DNA of 64,000 nucleotides, taken from assembly GCA_010093815.1 (NCBI GenBank), contig ML996579.1. One strand, written 5' to 3'. The first letter of the stretch is position 1. Each line of letters opens with the position of its first letter. A program made the translations under genes and the position numbers. The DNA comes from Pseudovirgaria hyperparasitica (lineage: Eukaryota). Positions 8,631-39,816 of the stretch are shown here, piece after piece. The notes under the pieces are model-generated. The model worked only from the letters and a program-made list of their open reading frames with translations, had not been told where the DNA came from and did no database searches.

Positions 8631-11600
8631 ATGGCCGGCTCGCAACGAGGGCCGTTGATAGATCAGTGGAGACCAGAGGATCCAAAATCATCAACACACC
8701 GCCCTCGAGAACGTCCCAGGCTGGAGCGCAGCCGTTCAAGGGACATTCGCGGCCGCTCGCCTGCATCACCGCGGCGTCTGCACCGCAACTCCATTGATCA
8801 CACCAAGCACAGCTCTCGAGCAGTCTCCCGACACACGAGAGACCGATCAGCGACACGCCGCCGAAGTCGTAGTCGAAGTAGGCCTCGTCATCGGGACATA
8901 GCCTCCACACCAGCGCGTCAAGACGAGCGTGACGATCTGTATCGGCCATCACGCAACAGGCAACCCAGCTCAGAACGTCCGCACCGTCATCGCGAACGCT
9001 CGTCCGTAGCAGCCAAACGCCGTCGAAGCATCTCACGCTCGCGATCTCGCGACTCGGCAAGGCTAACGAAGAGGCGTAGAAGTCGGAGTGCCGTCCGTTC
9101 GCCATCACGATCCCGTGGTTTAGACGCAACGCGCAGGCCCCTCGATCGAGCCTTTTCCCCTCGAGACACACGTCCCCCACGGCGAATAAGCCCTGACTCC
9201 TATATACCATCTCGTCGCCGCTCAAGATCACCGGAGTCCTCACGATATCGTCCCAGTTCACGATCACGTCGAAGATCACCGGCGCCTGACCGTCGTCTGT
9301 CAACGCAGCGTGTCGGCTCACCAAACCCCGCTTCATCGTATAGACACAAGGAAAGGCGCTCACCATCGGTTGAACACAAGAAAGAGAAGCCAAAAGACCT
9401 ATTTCAGTCTCGCCTGCGGTCTGACACGAATCTTAGCGAGCGTATCAGGAAAGAACAACCCCTCTCTTCATTGACGAAGGGCAAACGGACCCGCTCTCCG
9501 TCACCCCGTAGGAGACCATCCTCTCCAGCTACAAATCAACGTAAAAGACGATCAAGAAGCCGTAGTCGTGCTTCACTGCACCGACGCCGTTCTCGCACTC
9601 CCGTTCGACTGAGAAGTCCGCGTAGCTCGAGACCCACATCTCCTGACCGAGCCGTAAAGGCTACTCGTCATAGCTCTGTAGAGCGACAATCAAAGGACGA
9701 GAGCACCATGAGGGGTTCATTCGTACATGGTCGACCCTCGCGGTCTCAGGTCGACACACGAAATTATTCTGACTCTCCGCCCTACAATGCACCAAATCAA
9801 ATGATATCTCATGCACAGTCGCCATACAACGGACGCGGGGGTCAAAACCAGTACGGTAGTCATCAAGGGTAAGTCCTTCCCCTCTCCACTGACTGATACC
9901 AGCTCATATCAGTAGATCACCCGTACAAGGCTATTCGCCACATCAGTCTCCATACGGCCATCAGTCTCCGAATCAGGCCCAGTATTATCAGAATCAACAA
10001 TACAACACCCAGGGAGGTAGCATGACTCCAGGCTACAATTCCCCATCATATCGTGGTGCACATACGCCAACGAGAGGTAGTCGATTCCCTTCAGGCCCAT
10101 CTGCTCAGAATTATGCGGCACCTTCTGGCAGAGGACGAGGTGCACACTTCAGCAACCTGTCATGGACACCTGCAACTGGCAGTCGTGGAGGGAAGGCTCC
10201 GATAGATAAAACCCGTGCCATCATGGCACCGATCGCAGCCCAGTCAATGGCGCATGCCGCAGCAGCCCAAGCTGGAACCAGTTTGATATCTTCGAAAGAA
10301 GAAGATACAGATAACCCATTCAGACCATCGGCTGATATGCGTGCTGAAAATATTCAGGAAGAGACCGATAATCCGTTCCGTCCCTCGCTGGATTTGCGCG
10401 TAGAAGATTCAAGCACAGATATAAAAACATCTATGCCCCCGCCTAGCAAACCTAGCGCAGGAAGCATGTCACCAGCTGGGCCTAAGATAAGCTTTGCTCT
10501 CAAGACGAAACCAGCTACACAGCCCGTTACAACACCAAAGGCCGATTTAGGACAAAAGGCTCGCGAGGCTTTGAGCACATCCAAGACGAAGTCAACTTCG
10601 CCATCTTCAACTAGGCGTGATTTAGATGGTCGGTATGATAGAAGATATGAGTCGTACGACAGCCATCGAAGAAGCGACTATCGTAAGGATGACCGGCGAG
10701 AAGACCGACGAGAAGACCGACGAGAAGACCGGCGAGAAGACCGGCGGGACCGTCGCGATGAACGATACGACAGCCGCGATCGAAGTCGTGACCTTTTGGA
10801 CGATGCTCGTGCATCTCGCCGCGACGAACGGAGAGAAGACTGGAGCGAGCATGCTCGATATGCTGACGGTCGTCGCCGTGCGCCTGAGTCAAGGCCTGAG
10901 TCAAGGCCTGAGACTCGTCCAGAACGTCGCCCTGATAAGTCATCAGGACCACCGCTCGTACAGAAAAAGATCATGAAACGTCCGAAACCACGACCGACAC
11001 TCCCGCCAGATTTCGCCACGTCCGATTCAGTCTATTACCGGAAACCTGGTAATGAATCTGTAATAGGATCTGGTACCTATGGCAAAGTCTTTAAAGGTGT
11101 GCATGTCTATACCAAAGACATGGTCGCGTTGAAAAAAATACGGATGGAGGGCGAGCGCGATGGAGTAAGTTGGAACAATGCATTGAGAATATTTTGATGC
11201 AAAACTAATTTCTTCCTATAGTTCCCTGTTACCGCAATTCGCGAGATTAAGCTGTTACAATCACTCAACCACGACAACGTTGTCAAGCTTCAAGAGGTCA
11301 TGGTGGAGAAGAACGATTGCTTCATGGTGTTCGAATATCTTTCCCACGACTTGACTGGGTTGCTCAACCATCCTACATTTACCCTCGACCACTCACAGAA
11401 GAAAGATCTGGCCAAGCAGTTGTTTGACGGACTGAACTATCTTCACACCCGTGGCGTTCTGCATCGAGACATCAAAGCGGCAAACATCCTTGTCAGCAAT
11501 ACCGGGGTGTTAAAACTCGCCGACTTTGGACTTGCTCGATTCTATGCCAAGCGCGGCAAGCTTGACTACACGAATCGTGTCATCACAATCTGGTATCGCA

Positions 11601-12205
11601 GCCCGGAACTTCTCCTCGGTGAAACACAGTATGGACCCGCTGTGGACATCTGGTCTGCAGCCTGTGTACTGGTCGAGATCTTCACGAAGCATGCCATTTT
11701 CCCAGGTGATGGGGGTGAGATCAATCAGCTTGACAAGATTTACAACGTCCTTGGTACGCCTACTCGCTCTGAATGGCCTGGAATCGTTGAGATGCAATGG
11801 TTTGAGCTTCTTCGCCCTACGGAGCGCAAATACTCGACGTTTGCAGAAAAATACAAGGACCGCGTCACGCCCGCAGCCTTCGAGCTGTTATGTGCCATGT
11901 TTCAGTACGACCCTATCAATCGACCGAGCGCCTCTGACGTTCTCGAACATCCGTACTTCGCATCGGAAGAGCCGATGCCACGCCGTGCAGTCGAGCTCGC
12001 TGAGTTAAAGGGTGACTGGCACGAGTTTGAGAGCAAGGCCCTAAGAAGGGAGAAAGAGCGGGCCGACCGTGAAGCACGGCATAAGCAGCGTGAGTTGGAT
12101 ACAGGAGGAGAGGCTGTCGGTAAGGTCGAAGCGGAGAAGCGCAGGGCAGAAGCACCGCCCAATGAACCTGATGCGAAACGCCTAAAGGCTGATGGGGCTT
12201 CATGA
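8631..12205 (+). CDS. CTK1: RNA Pol II CTD kinase catalytic subunit (CDK12/13, Lsk1-like) with long RS-rich N-terminus; exons 8631-9868, 9916-11164, 11222-12205
   Basis: GSGTYGKV, VALKKIRME-GERDG-FPVTAIREIK, HRDIKAAN, DFGLAR, DYTNRVITIWYR and GDWHEFESK motifs; RS-dipeptide-rich N-terminus. Confidence 0.93.
10690..10748 (+). repeat. 12-bp coding tandem repeat (REDR) in CTK1
   Basis: GACCG(G/A)CGAGAA repeated about 4 times. Confidence 0.8.
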
Positions 12206-28153: not shown

Positions 28154-31100
28154 CTACTTCCTTGCGCACAACTTCACGATATCCACAAGCCCACATGCAC
28201 TCGCCACATCAATTGCACTTCTTCCCTTTCCATCCTCTCTCAGTGGATCCCCTACCTTCCCTATGAAGAACTGAAACGATTTCTTATCATGTTTAAGAGC
28301 ATGCATCAAGGCTCAAGCCATGTCTTCTCCTGGTGGCGATGTGGGAAGCTGTTTCGCCTGCGTTATTGACAGCTTGGACATCAGCTTCACTGTCAGTCGT
28401 AAATAGTTGCGCAAAAGCATTCACATGGCACGGCTTATCGCCGTATTCGCGCTTGTACGCACCAAACTCTTTCTCGCACGCTGTGACGTTTTTTCCCGTG
28501 TCATTTGCTCTCGACGCTACATATGCGAGTAGCGGAGTGTTGCCCTCGTTGTCCCGGACATCGATCGATCTGCCTGGAAGCAGGTACTGATTCCAAAGCA
28601 GTAGACTTGAGCGGATAGGTTCGCTGGTTGCTTGATATCTGATACGGGACGTCGAAAGACATGTGTCGGCAATATAGTGAAGTGCAGTGCGGCCATATGG
28701 GTCTGGCTCTAGCAGGTCAGCACCCTTGAATATTAGTAGATCGCACAAGCGCATTATATCGAGCACTGTCGTAGTCGAAACATCCACGTCAGCTTCCAGT
28801 AGAGGTTTAGCAAAGGACTTTACATTATGTGGTTTCTTAGATTTTCTTTCACAACCATGTTGTGATTTGTACCAAGGGTTGACATCTGAGGACCGGGCAA
28901 TTAGGTCAGGTCCAAACTGCATCATTGGATACTCACCCATCAACTGGGGATCGTCATTAAAGTTGCTCCATATTACATGCTCTCTGGTTGTTTCCGCACG
29001 GGCATGAATTGCAGTTCGAGCTCGAGCGTCGACGAGTGATACCTCTGCGCCGTACCGGAGTAATGCTGCCACAGACTCCAAATCACTCGCTGAACAAGCA
29101 TTGTGTAGCGGTGTCCGACCAGCACTGTCTTTCTGGTTGAGGAGACATGATCCAGTTTTGCTGAGGAGTAAGCGGACAATATTGGAGTAACGAGCACGGC
29201 AGGCAAGGTGCAAGGCATTGTGTTTGTCTTTTGTCACAAGCATAGCATTGGCTCCGGCAGACAGTATCTCTGCTGTGAAGCGGTCCGACTTGAGAGCAGC
29301 TAGATGCAGAGGCGCAAAACCAAAGACATCTTGTGAACCGAGCTGAACCATCTCTGACACGCCTGAGGTTTCGAGGAATGTGATCTGATGCTTCGTAAAA
29401 TTGTTGTGATACTCGTCACTCCTCTGGAGGAATACATGCAGTGGAGTCATCCTGTCGTTGCTCTGTGCATTCACAGATATACCGAAACCAATCATGCGTT
29501 GGGATCTCCTATAGAATTCGTCGTTTCCATTGTATTGAGATGAAAGGTGATGCAGGAGGGTATTGTCATGACGATTCACGCTGAGCGGGTCGAGTCCACG
29601 AGAGAGGAATTCGTCAAAGAGATTTCCTCTATGGAATGCGGTCGATAGTATATGGAGAGCATTGTTTCCGGTATAGTCAACTACATTACTCCTCGCTCCG
29701 TACTCATCAAGTACTCGAATCAACTCTTTGTTGTTTAGACCGCACAAAAGTAAGGTCTTGCCATCAGCGCAACGCGTTTCTAGGTCTGTATTTTCATCTA
29801 GCAAGATGGATACAAGCTCTTATAAATTTGCATAATCATATTTCGTGGCCAATGCAAACCAACAATGTCTCTCGACATTAATATTGGCACATTGAGCAAG
29901 AATGGATTCGAACAGTGGCGTGCTTACAGACATAACTTCTTCTACTACACTGAAGCCTCCGTCCGTGTCTTTGTTGAGATCTCCGCCATGTCGCAAGAGA
30001 CATTTGACAATCTCTTCTATATGCTCGATATTCCACAGTCGTGCAGCTTTTTGGAGCCAAGGCTCTTCGCAGAGGGGAATATCTGTACGCTCATTGCTCA
30101 TTGGGATCACATCCAGACTCAATGAGAAGCCGAACGAGGGCTGGTTAATAATGGAGGCGAAGAACGCGCTGTGATGTTCCGGCTCCTTCCGTATCTTTCG
30201 CATTCATATTTGCGCGTATAAGAGCTTCCAGTACATTTCTGTTGTGTTCTGATCCTCGGTCGCGGTGATCCTGAGCGCTGATTAGGAGAGGTGTATCGCC
30301 ACGTCTATTCGGCTTCTCGAGATCAGCGCCCGCTTTAAGGAGTGCCCGGAAGATATCACTGTAGGTATCAAAGTTCGGCCCTCGCCATTTGTTAACTAGG
30401 TTATGTAAGGGTAAAGTTTCGGGGTCTGGTTAACAATTTCCGCCCATTATCGCCTGTCGTGGTGTCCAGATGGAAGGCTTCATAACGTCAGCTCCTCTTT
30501 CGATGAGTGCTAATGCAATATTTGCATTGCAGTACCACACGCAAGGTACAATGCGTCGCGCCACAATACTGCGCGTCCAGAATAGCTAGAGCGACGTCTG
30601 TTCTGCTGTATCTACAACTCTCACACATGAGTTGCTCTAATACCGTCGATTCGCAGTATGGTATCATAGCAATGGCTTTTTCACTATGTCCGTTCCGACT
30701 GACATAGAAGATTGAGCACTCTCCTCTGGTGGTCGTCTCACCATCGATCAGTTCACCCGCATGATTCTCTGTTGTTTTGACCGTGGCTGGGTCAACGCCA
30801 GCCTTGAGCAGTATAGACACAGTTCAAGCATGGTTTTTGATAGCCGCTAGGTGGATTGGTTTATAAGCCTGAGCATCGGCTTTCGTCGGCTGTTCAACCG
30901 TAGCCCAGGAGCAGTCGTGTCGATTCAGCATAGCCATTGTTGGCCGCTCAGTGTATCTGCGTGCGAATCTGTGCATTATATTCTGGGCCCGAAGCAGCGC
31001 TCTCGATTATATATCGGACAAGATAAGTCATTCCACAAAACGCCGCAACATGAAAGCTGCTGGGTACACCGTCGTTGGTATCTTTTGTCTTAGAGATAGC

Positions 31101-31879
31101 AGTCCATACTAGCGAATAGAAACAAGCTATTGACCGTTTCAAACCATATCCACAATCTGATGCAGGTTTCCTCGGTCTAGCTTCATCATATCGATAGCGT
31201 CATGTAGTCGGTGTTTCATATAAGTCGAAATGCCTGCATTAACGAGCTTCTGCAGCAGGCTGATGTGAAGGATGGATGAGGCTTTAAACGCACTTTGAAG
31301 ATACTGCTTAGGTCTACTAGTCATCACAAGCTTAAAGATGCGGGGAAATAGATCGCAAGACTGTTAAGCTTCTTCAAGAAAAAGCTGTCCTCGGAGGCCA
31401 TTTCGTCCAGTGCATGAATTCTGAATGAGGGAGAAGCTGAGCCAACAAGTCCTGCAACAAGGAACGTGGCGAGAAGTTGGCTGCGACAATGTTTCGAAAG
31501 AAAATGAACGAGACCGGAACATCTTCAGTAGTACGCAAGTGCTGTACTAGGGACGCAGCGATGACGGGTTTACCTAGTTCTGGTTAGGTGGCAGTCGATG
31601 TGGCATGCATAAGGTCCGTACCAGCCCCTAGCACTCCCTTGATCCACAAACTCCCATGATCCGGTGCATCGTGCCACCGTCGATATTGGTCCGTCTCGCA
31701 GATCCATAGACCAGTTACATGGGCTTGCGATGATAAATGACGACGAAACTCGCTGGAGTCTGCAAGTTAATCAGTTGGGCTCAACAGTTCCGAATATCAT
31801 CTATGACATCTTATTCCAAGAAGGTCTCGTTATGGTTAATGATGTCATATTCGTCTATGGTTATGGCTGATCTTGGCAT
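28154..31879 (-). pseudogene. NACHT + ankyrin-repeat NLR-like pseudogene
   Basis: LSPTD*LADSSEFRRHLSSQ..TGLWICET..WHDAPDHGSLWIKGVLGAG|KPVIAA (Walker A split by intron 31574-31621); ALDEM (Walker B); MTSRPKQYLQ; many ankyrin repeats (GRTPLHNAC, APLHLAA); multiple stops, frameshifts and deletions. Confidence 0.88.
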
Positions 31880-32223
31880 TATCGGAAAAGCTGGTAAGAA
31901 AGTGAGGGAATAACACAATCACTGAGGGTCGAAGCGAAGCTTTATATATGTGGATCCTTGGAAGAAAATCCTTAAGAGTCCATGCTAAGAGACTTCGGTG
32001 TGTTAGGTAATTGAGTATCCTTGACACAGCCAGGCTGCACTGCACAAAAGGAAAAAAAGGCCAATGAATCACTTTCAAGTCGCAAGAGGCCTTGCGGCCC
32101 CTGTTCTCGGCGCATTCCGGTGTGTGCTTCAGTCACCTAGGATTGAAATCGTCTCTTATGGTTTATCGCTGGTTGCGAAAGGATCTGCTCACGATTCTGC
32201 AACGATGAAACAAAGCGTAGCAC

Positions 32224-33360
32224 ATGGACCTTGAACAAGAAGGTCTCTCATTGGGCCTGAGTATGGCTGAAGCTACGTAGCAAAGAGCTGGGGGAGCTGA
32301 GACTCGAGAGCAGCTATTTTATAAAGTTCGTGCAAGGCTCAAGCTTATCAGCGAGGAATTCTTTTGTTTCCCGACAATGCAAACTCACGGATGACGCCCT
32401 ATTTCTGGGGTCTCCATAAGGATTCTCAAGGACCATCTACATAGATTTGGTCAACTCACCTATCCTCATCTCATTCGAGGTTGTGCCAAACAAGAAGCTA
32501 CAGTCAGGCTCATGGAAAGACAGCTTTAGCAGCTGCTCGACTAGGTCTCCAACCTTCTCTGAGCACGACTTTCTCACACCATGACTGAAGCTGAGCAATA
32601 ATCCTAGATAGACGGAGTCACCGCCGACCTCGTGTATGCGTGATTCATTGAACTTCAGTGGTCTTCTTTCCTCTGGTGGGCGCAAATTACAAGCTTGACT
32701 GGCCATCAGCGGGTGTGAAGTCTGCCAGACTAACATCGTTTCTAATACAGCAGTCTGGAAATGTTTCCACACGTTTCCACTCAGGTAGATATATGCTTGT
32801 ATAATCTTCAAGCCTGACTTAACCAGAGAATGCTAAGTCTCCCGTCCCTGCGGATCGTTTCGTAAGATTACACTGAAGGCAGCCTCGAAGAGACTATTGC
32901 CTGAAGAGCTCTGAGCTATAGATAAGGCATCATGCCAAGCACAGAAGGGACTACGCCTCTTAACAACGATGTCAGTTGCCACCAACAGTGCGAATAGTAG
33001 GTACATACCTACAGACTGCAGAATCGCAAAGAAAACATCACCCTGTAAAGGTACGACGAGTATGGTTGACTGAGTACTCTTCTTGCTCTTGCACAGGGGC
33101 CGCTATCTGGATATCCCTCATAATTTTTTTTAGAGGGCGTTCTTGGAGCAATCTGCGTCGCCGTGGCTTTGCTGGCGATAAATTTGAGCTATTGATCGTC
33201 GGACTCTGTATATCTTGATTGATGTTCGTAAGTGGACGCTTAATTTTCGTTTGATACTATTATATCTTACGGTACTGCCCTTAGAAATGTTATCAAGAGT
33301 TTTACATCCAAGACTGTGATCCATAAGCCTCGCCTAGGCTCAGCAGTTATGATCGTTGCT
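32224..33360 (+). pseudogene. Possible degenerate (RIP-like) gene relic of unknown family
   Basis: Protein-like frame from ATG 32224 interrupted by TAG/TGA/TAA, an open antisense frame at 32437-32811, and intron-like GT..CTAAC..CAG segments. Stop density is not clearly below random. Confidence 0.3.
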
Positions 33361-34093: not shown

Positions 34094-35419
34094 CTAGATA
34101 CGCCGTCTTTTACGTGTTGGTTTGGTCCTCCTCACATCAGCACACTCTTGAGTATGAGGCCGCGATCGTTTTCGCTCCGGCTCCTGTGCCGAGTCTGTTG
34201 TTGGATTCATGACCACCGAGCATTTCATTGCGGCTATCCTTTTGCTGCGTCTTGGGGCTGAAGGCGTATGTTTGGAGATGACTGTGTGCTCTTGGTCATG
34301 TTCAATGCGCGATTCGCTGATCTGTGCCACGGTTGGGAGATGTTCCCCTTCTCTGGAACGTTTTCTTGGCCCCCTTTTACCCTTCCCCTCTGCTTTGGAC
34401 TGTGGTCCGCTTCTACTGGCGGCCGCGGGCTGAACTTTATCAGTGCCAGCATCAACTTTCGGGTGACCTGATCCATCACTTGGGCCTGAAGCCGAGTCAA
34501 CGCTATCTCTGATGGAGTTTGGATCTATGGTTGTCGGTTCAGTCTCAGTTGTTGGCGGATGCTTCGTTGTAGATGCACTGGAGGTTTCGACAAGGGGAAC
34601 AGGTGGTTGTATGATCCCCCATGTGGTATCTAACTGATCTGCATGCATCCAGGACATACCTGGGTACTCAGACCAGTCAGGGTTCCATATCTCGAGTTCA
34701 GTCCATTCTGCTTTAATAGTCTCGTAGGCTTTTTGTTCGAGGTCGCTTGCAGTAAGAGACGTCCCTCGTAAAGAAAGCGCTTCGTCTTGGATCCATTTCT
34801 GTTCTGCACCTACCTGAAACTTGAACTGATATAGTGGCCGAGACGCGTCTATGTCCACCTCTTCCCTATCGGGCTTGTCTTCTCCGTCTAATTCGACCTC
34901 GTGACCCCAGCGAGCTCTTTCGGGAACCCATGGACCTTTCCTTGAATGCAGTATATCTTGTCGCCATCCACTTCTTGCACTTGGTGGCCAAGCAGGACCC
35001 CAACTAGACTTCCATATCTTCTGCTCAACCCAACGTGCTCTTACGATGTTTTCTGCATTTATGATAAGATCTTGCGTGTCATCGATTCGATGGGTTGGGC
35101 GTCGGATTGTTTCGATGGTTCTCTGTTTAATTATTTGTTCATGGATTTTTTTGACTTGTTGCATGAATTGCTTGCGAGGGGTAGATCTCTCGAGAACCAT
35201 GGCTCTGGCCTCCCATTCATCCTCGTCGATCTCCAGCTCGGGTGGCTCATCTTGGTTCGAACCAGCTACAAGACCAAATAGATACTGGTAGTCTGGTTCA
35301 GGGCCTGTCGACTCGCGACTCTGATATGGAGGTGGTGGGCTACTGGAACGATTTGCGAGGGTTTCAAAGGGTGCTAGACCAGCATGCGGTGGATTGGTGC
35401 GCGCGTCGAGTAAAGCCAT
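34094..35419 (-). CDS. Uncharacterised Trp-rich protein with two internal repeats (A..(V/I)...W.E..IW...W...P...W.H) and basic, NLS-like tail
   Basis: Intact 441-aa ORF; AENIVRARWVEQKIWKSSW...RWGHE and AYETIKAEWTELEIWNPDW..PGMSWMH; SRPLYQF; PRRSKR and RKRRR. Confidence 0.8.
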   Translation of the reverse strand: MALLDARTNPPHAGLAPFETLANRSSSPPPPYQSRESTGPEPDYQYLFGLVAGSNQDEPPELEIDEDEWEARAMVLERSTPRKQFMQQVKKIHEQIIKQRTIETIRRPTHRIDDTQDLIINAENIVRARWVEQKIWKSSWGPAWPPSARSGWRQDILHSRKGPWVPERARWGHEVELDGEDKPDREEVDIDASRPLYQFKFQVGAEQKWIQDEALSLRGTSLTASDLEQKAYETIKAEWTELEIWNPDWSEYPGMSWMHADQLDTTWGIIQPPVPLVETSSASTTKHPPTTETEPTTIDPNSIRDSVDSASGPSDGSGHPKVDAGTDKVQPAAASRSGPQSKAEGKGKRGPRKRSREGEHLPTVAQISESRIEHDQEHTVISKHTPSAPRRSKRIAAMKCSVVMNPTTDSAQEPERKRSRPHTQECADVRRTKPTRKRRRI

Positions 35420-35951
35420 AGTGAGGAGATAAAGTAGGAAAGATGTCGATGGAATGAGCGGTGCAGGAGAAGGAGAGCCTTATGCGCAATACAATGTTGA
35501 ATATTGAATATGCAGTGGGGTCATGAACGTCGTCGTATCAAAGCGCACGGACCTTCGCAACGTCGACGCGCGCGCCTGGCTTTAAGCGCTGTAACTATTT
35601 TCGGTGAACCATGATGGTTGCCTTAATTAGCTATTGTCCGTGCCTGATCCACCTTTTAGCAAAGCAACTGTACTTGATATAATCCATGCATCAACCTATT
35701 AAATGTGGACACCGACCACCTAAAGGTGTAAGACAGGCGTTTAAAGCGGCACAGTCACGTTCTAATTATGTCTTCGGTCGCTCGGGATGCTTCGACTGGA
35801 CGTAATTCACTCTTATCGCGTCGACTAGGTAGTATCAAACATGGCACAGTTTAGGAACTTTGTTTCATGCCCATATTGATTGTTTCAAGCTGTCGCCTCC
35901 TGGCGCTTACCAGTAGCAATGAGAAAGCTAAAAGGACCCCATCCCTAGACA

Positions 35952-37752
35952 ATGGTGTTGTTTGGCAAGCCATCTACCATGTTTCCTTTACAGCCTCCGC
36001 CAAATACTATCATCTCCTTAATTCCTACGAACGATGATGCGAAGAGCCTACTGCACCATGAGCATAATAGACATCTAGTGTCAGAAGTGCCACAGGCCAA
36101 AACTGACAGAAAAGGATGTGTTCGTCTCGGATTCAACCTTTCTTTCGCCCTCTCGACAGAGGCACGAACTACATTGGTCACAATTGGCAAAGACAAGACG
36201 CGATGCCAGATCTTTGCAGACGGTTCCTCGATAGGGAAGGTACACTGTACCATTGAGATACGAGAAGGTACAACAGATGTGTTCATAATGAAGCGCACAA
36301 ACAAAGGTTCAATCGGATTCTTTAATAATTCTCCCACCCCTTTGAACAAGCAAGGCCTTGCGCCCTTGGGTCCTGAGACGAATACCATCTTCGGCATCGG
36401 ACATCGGAAAGGCGATCTTTACGTATTCGCGGTATATTGGCACAGGGATCTGGAATGGCAAGCCCTCGCAAACCGACAGCACCTGTTGTCTCAGACGAGA
36501 AGTACCGAGATTGAAATGGAGCCACACGAAATATCTCAGGGCGAAGCAAGAAGAGTTCTGCGAATCCATACCACACGGACACCTGCAGGCAAACTACGCA
36601 TGAATTACAAGACCATCAATGAACTCGGGTCAGGAACTTATGGAACAGTGACCAAGGTCCAAGATGTGGACAGTGGTAACTTGTATGCATGTAAGAAAGT
36701 GCGGCTACCTGATGTCCACAACGACTACACGAGCTTTGCGAAGACAAAAAGGGAGGTCGAGATACCGTTCAAATTCAGTCACGTATGTCTTTTCATATTC
36801 TTACACAGAAAGCTACTGATCAAACCAATAGCCTCATATTATCAAGTATGTCTTTGCTCAACGAATGGACCAGAAGGGCATTGCATACTTCGAGATCTTC
36901 ACAGAATTAAAAGATGGCAGTATCGAGGACTTGATTAGGAATGGGGAGATGTTTGTGAAGCATAAATCTCTCGGCATACAAGTCTTGTTGAGCATGCTAC
37001 GAGCCTTGGAATATATCGCTGATCAAGGCTTCATCCACCGCGATATAAAGCCCGCCAATATTCTCTATAACAAACTCCACAACGGCCAGTTTGAGTTCTG
37101 CCTTGCCGATTTTGGTCTCGTCAACATATCATCGAATGCGCGGACCATAGCAGGAACACCTGTATTCTACGCCCCAGAAATATTGATGGACGCTGGTGCA
37201 CTGCAAACCCCCAAAGTCGATATCTGGTCCCTCTTCGTCACGTACGCCTTCATGATCAATGCCAACGGATTGAGGAACAAACTCACGGATAGATTTGAGG
37301 AGAACATAAAAGCAGTGCGGGAGGCTGTAGACAACGAACGTTGCACCGATCTGGAGCCGATGACTCGTGTTTATCCAGCACACCGCGCTAGCGCACGGCA
37401 GATGCTGCAAATACTCAACAACGGGGTCGGTGCTGCAGAGGGCAAGACACAGACAATGGAACGTACGAGGATTGCTGCGCCGCTAGCGCAGTCCAAAGCC
37501 CTTAAAAGGATCGAAATGGTCGGCCCATCAAATCCACCGAATCCAGCTGACCGCAAGGAGGTCAAAGACCGAGGAATGTTCGTGCTTCAGACACGCCAGC
37601 CATCTCAGCCTATGAGTTCAAAGGGCTCGAGTGGTTTGATGTCATTGGATATACCACCATCGAAGCTTTCCCAGGAGAAAGAGAAGAGCAAAAGGTTCTG
37701 GGGACCCCCCCGGAGAACTAGTTCTGGCATGTCGGGAATCGAGTATGAGTGA
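35952..37752 (+). CDS. FHA-like domain + Ser/Thr protein kinase; exons 35952-36782, 36832-37752
   Basis: TIGK...SSIGKVHCTIE (FHA-like); GSGTYGTV, ACKK, HRDIKPAN, DFG, GTPVFYAPE, DIWSL; 49-nt GTATGT..CTGAT..TAG intron. Confidence 0.88.
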
Positions 37753-38934: not shown

Positions 38935-39816
38935 TCAGGACCTGAACTGCTCGCAATCGAGATAGTTCATCTCGATAAACGCAAAATCCGCCTTCAGTCC
39001 ATATACCTCCTCCCACTTGCTGCTCTCTGGAAGCGCGGGCTTTCCAATCTCAACATACGCTTTAATTGGTACGGGCGCATACTCTCCTGTTGTAACAGCA
39101 GAATCAAAGATGGTAGTGAAGTTATCGCAAAGCTTGCCGTTTGTGATGATTTGATTCGACGTGTTGCGGTATAACTCTATGCTATATGGCTGGCTCTTTA
39201 CAGGCGAAAAGCGAGTCTTGAACAGCGGACTGTCGTGCGGGTGGAGGATAGAATAAGCGTCGAAGAGTAGCTCTCCAGGGGATGAAGCGTCGGAGCGATA
39301 CGCATCACATGGCGGATCGAAGCTCGCAACAATCGGACTCGGCGGCGTGTAATACGGTTGGGCGCCCGCAATGGCAAGAATGTTTTCACTGATTACTAGA
39401 CTCTGCGCATACCGGAAAATCGTCTGGCTATCGCCGAAGATGTCAACGAACGGCAGATTGACCTCAACCCGCGAAAAATCCGGGATCAAATTCAGGCCGG
39501 AGGCTCGGATGTCGTGGTCGTAGACTCCTTGGACGAGGAGAGGGAATTAATCGCGTGGAAAGTCTGGTTGCAGGCTGTAGAGTTGATCGAGAAGGATGCG
39601 GGCGCCAGCGGGGACAAGGGATTGTGCGTAGGATAGGGAAATGGGGATTATGAGAGTTGTGCCATTTGCGGTGCCCGTGGCAAGGTTGGGGTACTGTAAA
39701 GCAATAGGATTCGGTTGCGACTGAGTGGTGCAGCCAATTGGGCCGACAAGAGCAGAGGCGGAGAGGGCCAGGAGAGTAGTGCAGGCGAGATAAGGGGTTG
39801 TGTCAAGGGTTTTCAT
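38935..39816 (-). pseudogene. Secreted hypothetical protein interrupted by a single in-frame TAA (39547-39549)
   Basis: ORFs 39547-39816 and 38935-39489 share a frame and read QPDFPRD*FPLLVQGVYDHDIRASG..PDFSRVEVNLPFVD; signal peptide at the N-terminus. Confidence 0.7.

Follow-up and report, generated by a model that had tools for sequence, protein, structure and literature searches.

Rad53, Chk2, Dun1 and Mek1 are kinases of the CAMK group that carry a forkhead-associated (FHA) domain; the Rad53-type enzymes work with dedicated phospho-adaptors such as Rad9, Mrc1 and Hop1, and an SQ/TQ cluster domain ahead of the FHA domain is a feature of the Rad53/Chk2 type. The 64,000-nucleotide stretch of the genome of the dothideomycete Pseudovirgaria hyperparasitica analysed here (GenBank assembly GCA_010093815.1, contig ML996579.1; hereafter the window) holds a kinase gene, K, whose product appears to have the same layout, with an FHA-like beta-sandwich directly N-terminal to the kinase domain, and which lies head-to-head with a gene, W, for a tryptophan-rich protein. 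Unlike the Rad53/Chk2 core kinases, the K family has a patchy distribution, evolves fast and is physically tied to a partner gene. Its FHA match falls below the Pfam cut-off, and it has no SQ/TQ cluster ahead of the FHA-like domain: [ST]Q is absent from the first 80 residues in 10 of 13 K members, including that of the window (P0153), and occurs one or two times in the other three. On balance we consider it probable that W and K are a two-gene module of Pezizomycotina, conserved, inherited together and transcribed divergently, in which W is the dedicated partner of K.

Two other described systems are comparable. Conserved divergent gene pairs of eukaryotes, as presented in an excerpt of PMC2871058, resemble W-K in their head-to-head order, their short shared upstream region and the loss of synteny around the pair; the excerpt names neither the W-K pair nor the W family, and in W-K no shared promoter element was found. 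The Spok spore-killer genes of Podospora, according to an excerpt of PMC12693581, are toxin/antidote genes with a kinase domain needed for resistance, and thus, like W-K, combine a kinase domain with another activity in a fungal element of patchy distribution. Compared by description only, Spok is one gene that includes a nuclease-like killing domain, whereas W-K comprises two genes without a nuclease or toxin-like domain. No description of the W-K pair or of the W family was found in the literature covered, which excludes subscription journals.

A divergent pair of intact genes

A sequence-only reading of the window had singled out two intact genes diverging from about 530 bp of shared upstream DNA, and this holds: a 441-aa open reading frame (ORF), W, and the 583-aa, two-exon gene K are separated by a spacer of 532 bp. 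The features of the pair are listed below, with structural assignments from AlphaFold2 (AF2) models and their predicted local distance difference test (pLDDT) values, and conservation from an alignment of 99 rows of the W family (A2).

34094..35419 (-), W, single-exon coding sequence of 441 aa, stop codon included; intact ORF
34097..34387 (-), basic, disordered tail of W, residues ~345-441, with KRGPRKR, PRRSKRIAA and terminal KRRRI; pLDDT below 55
34610..35242 (-), conserved, all-alpha, Trp-rich domain of W, residues ~60-270 (AF2 and A2)
34673..34705 (-), W repeat motif copy 2, WTELEIWNPDW, residues 239-249, followed by ..PG..W.H (regular expression)
35000..35032 (-), W repeat motif copy 1, WVEQKIWKSSW, residues 130-140 (regular expression and shuffle test)
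35324..35335 (-), PPPY motif of W (PPxY type), residues 29-32
35420..35951 (no strand), shared upstream region between the W and K start codons, 532 bp
35952..36782 (+), K exon 1, residues 1-277, encoding an N-terminal extension, the FHA-like domain and the first part of the kinase domain
36009..36446 (+), FHA-like beta-sandwich of K, residues ~20-165 (Pfam near cut-off, AF2, Foldseek)
36783..36831 (+), K intron, 49 nt, GTATGT...CAATAG (sequence and contig splice)
36832..37752 (+), K exon 2, residues 278-583, stop codon included: remaining kinase domain and disordered tail

Head-to-head linkage in other genomes

The sequence-only reading had suggested that both families are patchily distributed in Pezizomycotina and often adjacent, and comparison with other genomes bears this out. 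The best match to W (P0002, PVH93670.1) and the best match to K (P0159, PVH93669.1) lie on one 50,284-bp scaffold of Periconia macrospinosa under consecutive accessions, as do the public models of the window's own W and K. Apart from these, the named W and K members belong to separate species, as in Gyalolechia, where the two families were found in different ones. Metagenome contigs were scanned with two peptide patterns taken from W only, a search hence blind to the kinase, and 259 pattern matches yielded 37 confirmed W loci, 30 of them distinct at 95% identity, in which K was sought by tblastn with 14 K-family proteins. Among the 24 distinct loci that proved informative, 18 carried a head-to-head K, two a partial kinase and four none:

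18 loci, K from residue 1-2 on the opposite strand, directly upstream of W: L001, L004, L005, L006, L007, L009, L012, L013, L017, L020, L023, L026, L027, L028, L031, L034, L035, L037
2 loci, partial or odd kinase pieces: L010, L015
4 loci, W without kinase, none even at E<=1 in 2.8-10 kb upstream: L002, L019, L025, L030
6 of the 30 distinct loci, too little DNA upstream of W: L008, L014, L024, L029, L032, L036

In the head-to-head set the W-K spacers measure ~246-1111 bp; K is truncated to residues 1-112 in L035 and cut by the contig end in L028, L034 and L037. Every K-family match in the metagenome loci adjoins W, with the exception of one extra kinase ORF downstream of W (L015/L016). The proteins of locus L001 share 90-93% identity with those of Periconia, and its DNA shows the head-to-head order directly. 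The homologs are thus linked in the same orientation elsewhere, and the pair does not behave as two single-copy syntenic core genes. The loci with W alone look like losses or relocations of K. L003 resembles L002 in being a W-only locus; the W of L002 is 72% identical to the kinase-linked W of Periconia, and L030 holds two tandem W copies with no kinase nearby.

A conserved regulatory element is not evident in the spacers, because no promoter word is common beyond shuffles and the window lacks the candidates. The best 8-mers occur in 6 of 19 W-K spacers against a shuffle maximum of 5, and TGA[CG]TCA occurs in 7 of 19, the window spacer not among them. The longer ATGA[CG]TCA, which we take to be an AP-1/Gcn4-type site, is present in 6 of 19 (L009, L013, L017, L028, L034, L037), the seventh of TGA[CG]TCA adding one L009 site. 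A shared promoter motif was accordingly set aside as a feature of the module, its counts lying barely above shuffles and its candidates being absent from the window spacer.

Co-inheritance and turnover of the pair

Distances among W proteins track those among K proteins (Mantel r 0.83, reached by none of 5000 permutations) across 18 pairs comprising 16 metagenome loci, the window and Periconia, with L035 and L037 left out as partial. Consistent with this, maximum-likelihood trees of the two genes, which the sequence-only reading had proposed to compare, have their main clades in common: a clade of the same ten loci appears in each (support 100/99 in the W tree, 92/92 in the K tree), both join L001 with Periconia (100/100 and 91/44) and both join L004 with L005 (100/100 and 99/98). 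The window copy sits on a long branch in each (2.6 and ~3.5 changes per site). Together with the linkage, these congruent histories support the earlier proposal of a co-inherited, undescribed module; the correlation shows co-inheritance and not interaction.

Both partners diverge fast, the mean p-distance being 0.55 among W proteins and 0.52 among K proteins. K proteins of the closely related Ajellomycetaceae (Histoplasma, Emergomyces, Emmonsia, Blastomyces parvus) share only 38-60% identity, and the K gene tree does not follow the species, because the Histoplasma K lies closer to the Pleosporales copies, with 52% identity to that of Periconia against 42% to that of B. parvus; this pattern suggests old paralogues with differential loss, or transfer. 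W-only loci, the tandem W of L030, the truncated K of L035, a 158-aa paralogue fragment (see below) and the low K identities together give the pair what appears to be an accessory, fast-turnover profile.

The genes around the pair change from locus to locus. Pfam annotation of flanking ORFs (84/93) returned unrelated neighbours, including the housekeeping genes for carbamoyl-phosphate synthase, APC1, actin and Pet127, metabolic enzymes and, in L001, an NLR (a NOD-like receptor). Since the flanks are unrelated between loci, it is the pair alone that stays together, not the pair within a conserved syntenic block. All-against-all clustering of ORFs from the loci likewise returned W and K as the only recurrent families, apart from overlapping-frame artefacts and one family of ~320 aa, and the module as delimited by these comparisons is of two genes. 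The variable flanks fit mobility of the pair, without proving it. Two DUF3435 fragments, a domain that presumably belongs to tyrosine-recombinase-like mobile elements, lie 2-6 kb beyond K in L023 (2958-5810).

The ~320-aa family, which has no Pfam match, occurs in 5 of the 30 distinct loci (L009:6504-7475, L026:5729-6697, L020:2321-3283, L014:2564-3604, L013:7415-8323), 0.2-3 kb from the pair and beyond either K or W, with 48-73% mutual identity, and is absent from the window. It was rejected as a conserved third gene, being found in only those five loci and at varying positions.

The W family and its predicted fold

W holds two copies of W.E..IW...W, at residues 130 and 239, and 12 of its 14 tryptophans fall within residues 120-260; at least one match to the motif arose in only 6 of 100000 shuffles of the protein. 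The duplication had been noticed from the letters alone, and the repeat itself stands, the spacing first given (W..E..IW) being one residue off. An NLS-like tail (resembling a nuclear localisation signal) had also been noted and is present as a basic C-terminus ending KPTRKRRRI.

A full HMMER pass over 1.84 billion representatives returned 506 W-family proteins at E<=1e-3 and 165 at E<=1e-10, the family size of 506 being counted in clusters at 50% identity. All named members are hypothetical proteins and all are from Pezizomycotina, comprising Dothideomycetes (Periconia, Kalmusia, Melanomma, Trematosphaeria), Sordariomycetes (Fusarium nematophilum, Ilyonectria), Eurotiomycetes (Chaetothyriales species) and Lecanoromycetes (Gyalolechia). 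In A2 (a smaller alignment, A3, served for the metagenome loci search) W130, W136, W140, W171, H173, W239, W245, W249 and W257 are nearly invariant, and the family consensus around motif copy 1 is RW[VI]EQGIW. Of the 99 rows, 65, 73 and 58 have P in the three proline columns of PPPY and 65 have Y in the fourth, the PPxY motif being preserved in both main clades of W loci, and the tail motif [RK]RSxR[IVL] is found in 55 of the 99 members.

The AF2 model built with A2 has eight helices, with ten-residue blocks over residues 61-260 mostly at pLDDT 85-98 and a weaker section at residues 151-190 (58-81). A Pfam search of the W protein found no family, and none of the 99 members has a kinase or any recurrent Pfam domain. 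A profile search of the Protein Data Bank (PDB) with W gave no match at E<=5, the best Foldseek match on the PDB had an E-value of 2.4, and the best VIA-align match over 48,161 chains reached Z 3.8; protein atlas look-ups returned only unnamed Ascomycota clusters. The modelled W domain would thus be an undescribed, two-repeat, Trp-rich, all-helical domain without a sequence or fold relative in the searches made.

A 158-aa protein (P0005) encoded outside the window on the same contig of the same species, its accession preceding that of W by 15, shares 58% identity with W residues 1-166, and a 191-aa representative (P0031) matches the W tail at residues 255-433 with 46% identity. P0005, and possibly P0031, may be a decayed or split W paralogue.

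The kinase K and its relation to checkpoint kinases

The K protein of 583 aa is 100% identical to the public model P0153. Pfam Pkinase (PF00069) matches it with E 4e-23, the whole protein scoring 125.3 bits against a cut-off of 31.7, and the kinase domain runs to about residue 475 (nt 37425), after which (from residue 476) pLDDT falls below 35. That K carries all catalytic motifs, as the sequence-only reading had stated, is confirmed across the family: K248, H346-R347-D348, N353, D370-F371-G372 and A391-P392-E393 (the Lys, HRD, DFG and APE motifs among them) are shared by all 14 members compared, with E268 nearly invariant and present here.

The N-terminal part is less clear-cut. Pfam FHA matches the K N-terminus with E 0.0011 and 19.8 bits, below the 20.7 cut-off, and across the family reaches E<=0.1 in 9 of 14 members (all subthreshold, best 8e-4) and goes undetected in five. 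The AF2 model of this part is all-beta, with strands only in residues 43-163. Foldseek placed Rad53 1-466 as the top match to the K model (E 7e-18, 481 columns), and CHK2 aligned over 505 columns, at template modelling (TM) scores of 0.3-0.5; PDB sequence matches include CHK2 and CaMK. By these signatures K appears to be an active-looking CAMK-like Ser/Thr kinase with an FHA-like domain ahead of its catalytic domain.

A word-based search defined a close family of 13 further proteins (E 1e-43 to 1e-84, 66-96% query coverage), the named ones from Dothideomycetes (Periconia, a Phaeosphaeriaceae species), Eurotiomycetes of the order Onygenales (Histoplasma, Emergomyces, Emmonsia, Blastomyces parvus), Lecanoromycetes (Usnochroma, Gyalolechia) and Sordariomycetes of the Xylariales (Ustulina, Xylaria). 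The next matches, at about 1e-16, are generic CAMK and Chk2-like kinases, the true Chk2/Dun1-like fungal proteins with 27-30% identity over 35-45% of the query; proteins named Chk2, Dun1 or rad53 match only at E ~1e-13 to 1e-17, with 33-47% query coverage. On this comparison K is not a core checkpoint kinase ortholog. The window holds a second protein kinase gene, at 9893-12205 (+), with Pkinase spread over two ORFs and presumably split by an intron; its similarity to K is generic only (34% over 110 residues).

Expression and gene models

In two runs of unrecorded kind from one sample (X1/X2), assembled contigs span W without a joint, from 33900 to 35441/35444, and K from 35978/35982 to 37830/37877, skipping exactly 36783-36831; none matches 35445-35783, a gap to which no meaning is attached, and such contigs give no transcript ends or levels. 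They are most simply read as RNA-derived. Because they are spliced, they suggest that W and K are both expressed and that the K intron is removed.

The public W model P0001 (393 aa) is 100% identical to W over 85% of the length of W and corresponds to W with a C-terminal intron removed (34094-34290 region). The contigs, running unspliced through W, favour the 441-aa frame over this model, and the 441-aa frame also aligns with the PRRSKRIAA motif of relatives; the public model is therefore probably wrong at its 3' end.

Genomic surroundings in the window

The sequence-only reading had placed the pair inside a decaying island. Two broken genes adjoin it:

28293..33333 (-), broken NLR: NPHP3_N/NACHT-like pieces and ankyrin repeats, with in-frame stops and frame changes
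38935..39816 (-), stop-interrupted ORF, in-frame TAA at 39547-39549

An in-frame stop (31584-31586) in the first falls between contiguous NPHP3_N profile positions, and its ankyrin ORF is 508 aa long; judged by these lesions, 28293-~33300 (-) is an NLR pseudogene. Downstream of W in L001 there is likewise an NPHP3_N + Ank NLR, which looks intact and has the same orientation. This NLR and the relic of the window have no detectable similarity, and the NLR was rejected as a third member of the module. Around the TAA of the second gene no intron signals were seen, and Pfam gave no family for it; its N-terminus is hydrophobic and signal-peptide-like.

DNA degraded by repeat-induced point mutation (RIP) has a high TpA/ApT index, a low (CpA+TpG)/(ApC+GpT) index and low GC. 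For the NLR relic these indices are 0.77 and 1.31, against a window mean of 0.71 and 1.24, and by dinucleotide indices neither the relic nor W nor K is RIP-like. Two spacers are AT-richer (TpA/ApT 0.95 and 1.10, second index 1.08-1.09, GC 0.43), which leaves the TpA-rich relics described earlier with weak backing. Core genes (GH92, M16 peptidase, TFIIE-beta, Met-tRNA ligase, Mlp1-like) flank the ~12-kb stretch on both sides. With RIP indices unremarkable bar these two spacers and core genes on both sides, the "island" appears to be a short stretch with two broken genes and not a RIP-degraded region: the broken NLR and the interrupted ORF stand, but there is no RIP signature.

Competing explanations for the W-K association

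If W is the dedicated partner of K, it would serve as an adaptor, a regulator or the main substrate. The two proteins would interact, with the FHA-like domain or the kinase of K acting on W, and the shared ~0.5-kb promoter would keep them in step, by analogy with other head-to-head pairs whose products act together. W would be nuclear, and its PPxY motif, of a type linked to Rsp5/Nedd4-type ubiquitin ligases, would connect it to such a ligase.

Several points weigh against this partnership. Correlated W and K distances are expected from shared descent alone and thus speak for co-inheritance only, and the metagenome loci behind the linkage counts are not independent samples. In 4 of 24 loci W is intact with no kinase nearby, so that W can exist without a linked K. 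These W-only loci also weaken the mutual dependence that the sequence-only reading had seen in retention amid decay, and contradict its strict form, no kinase being found within 2.8-10 kb. A candidate phospho-site in W, R-x-x-T109-x-x-hydrophobic, has T in 78 and R in 70 of the 99 rows of A2, but the idea that the FHA-like domain reads it does not hold generally, as kinase-linked W genes of the second main clade lack the motif. The canonical phospho-threonine-binding residues of FHA domains are Gly-Arg, Ser-x-x-His and Asn; most K relatives keep the Arg and Ser of this site, and the window copy has neither. Because GK and G-K-V-H replace the GR and S-K-I-Q of the family consensus, phospho-threonine binding by the window copy appears doubtful.

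An unlikely alternative, though one to be taken seriously, is that W-K is a conflict system (toxin/antidote, allorecognition, meiotic drive or immune-like) in which one product is harmful or a sensor and the other restrains it, the pair persisting as selfish or under diversifying selection. The fast divergence of both partners, the departure of the K gene tree from the species in the Ajellomycetaceae and the patchy spread of the named genomes carrying the pair would all suit such a system, as would the variable or decaying copies (the truncated K of L035, the partial K of L015, W-only loci, the tandem W of L030, the 158-aa fragment) and the variable flanks, among them the NLR beside W both in L001 and in the window and the DUF3435 fragments of L023. 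Neither W nor K, however, has a toxin-like, nuclease, pore-forming or HET domain, the two NLR neighbours are without sequence similarity while most loci have ordinary neighbours, and fast evolution also fits a lineage-specific signalling pair. The boldest form, which we hold to be doubtful, would make W-K a new fungal two-gene class of conflict or immune-like system, in which K guards or licenses a Trp-rich effector and the unit travels between sites and perhaps lineages, with a logic like that of Spok or het genes and unrelated sequence.

It is also improbable that W and K stay together only through a bidirectional promoter or co-regulation, their proteins not acting on each other. That head-to-head order and a short spacer are the conserved features would agree with this, as would the viability of W without a linked K in the W-only loci and the lack of a linear motif tying W to the kinase across both clades; yet no promoter word rises beyond shuffles, the window has none of the candidates, and the parallel long branches of the window W and K, together with matched rates, suggest joint constraint on the proteins. 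Chance adjacency, or ordinary synteny of two single-copy core genes, is very hard to credit: the window region does sit among core genes, but the head-to-head order recurs, amid unrelated flanks, in 18 of the 24 distinct loci that are informative and also in Periconia, and the two families are patchily distributed, evolve fast and have several copies in some genomes.

Implications

Should W and K prove to be a dedicated module, Pezizomycotina would hold a widespread yet patchy two-gene unit that annotation resources do not name, in which a kinase with the layout of a DNA-damage checkpoint kinase has its own hard-wired partner, built on a domain without a known relative. The pair offers a defined, testable case of kinase-partner co-evolution in fungi and may lead to a signalling branch or a conflict system not known so far. 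Its carriers include lichen-forming, saprotrophic and mycoparasitic fungi and relatives of human pathogens, which would make its role accessible in several lifestyles.

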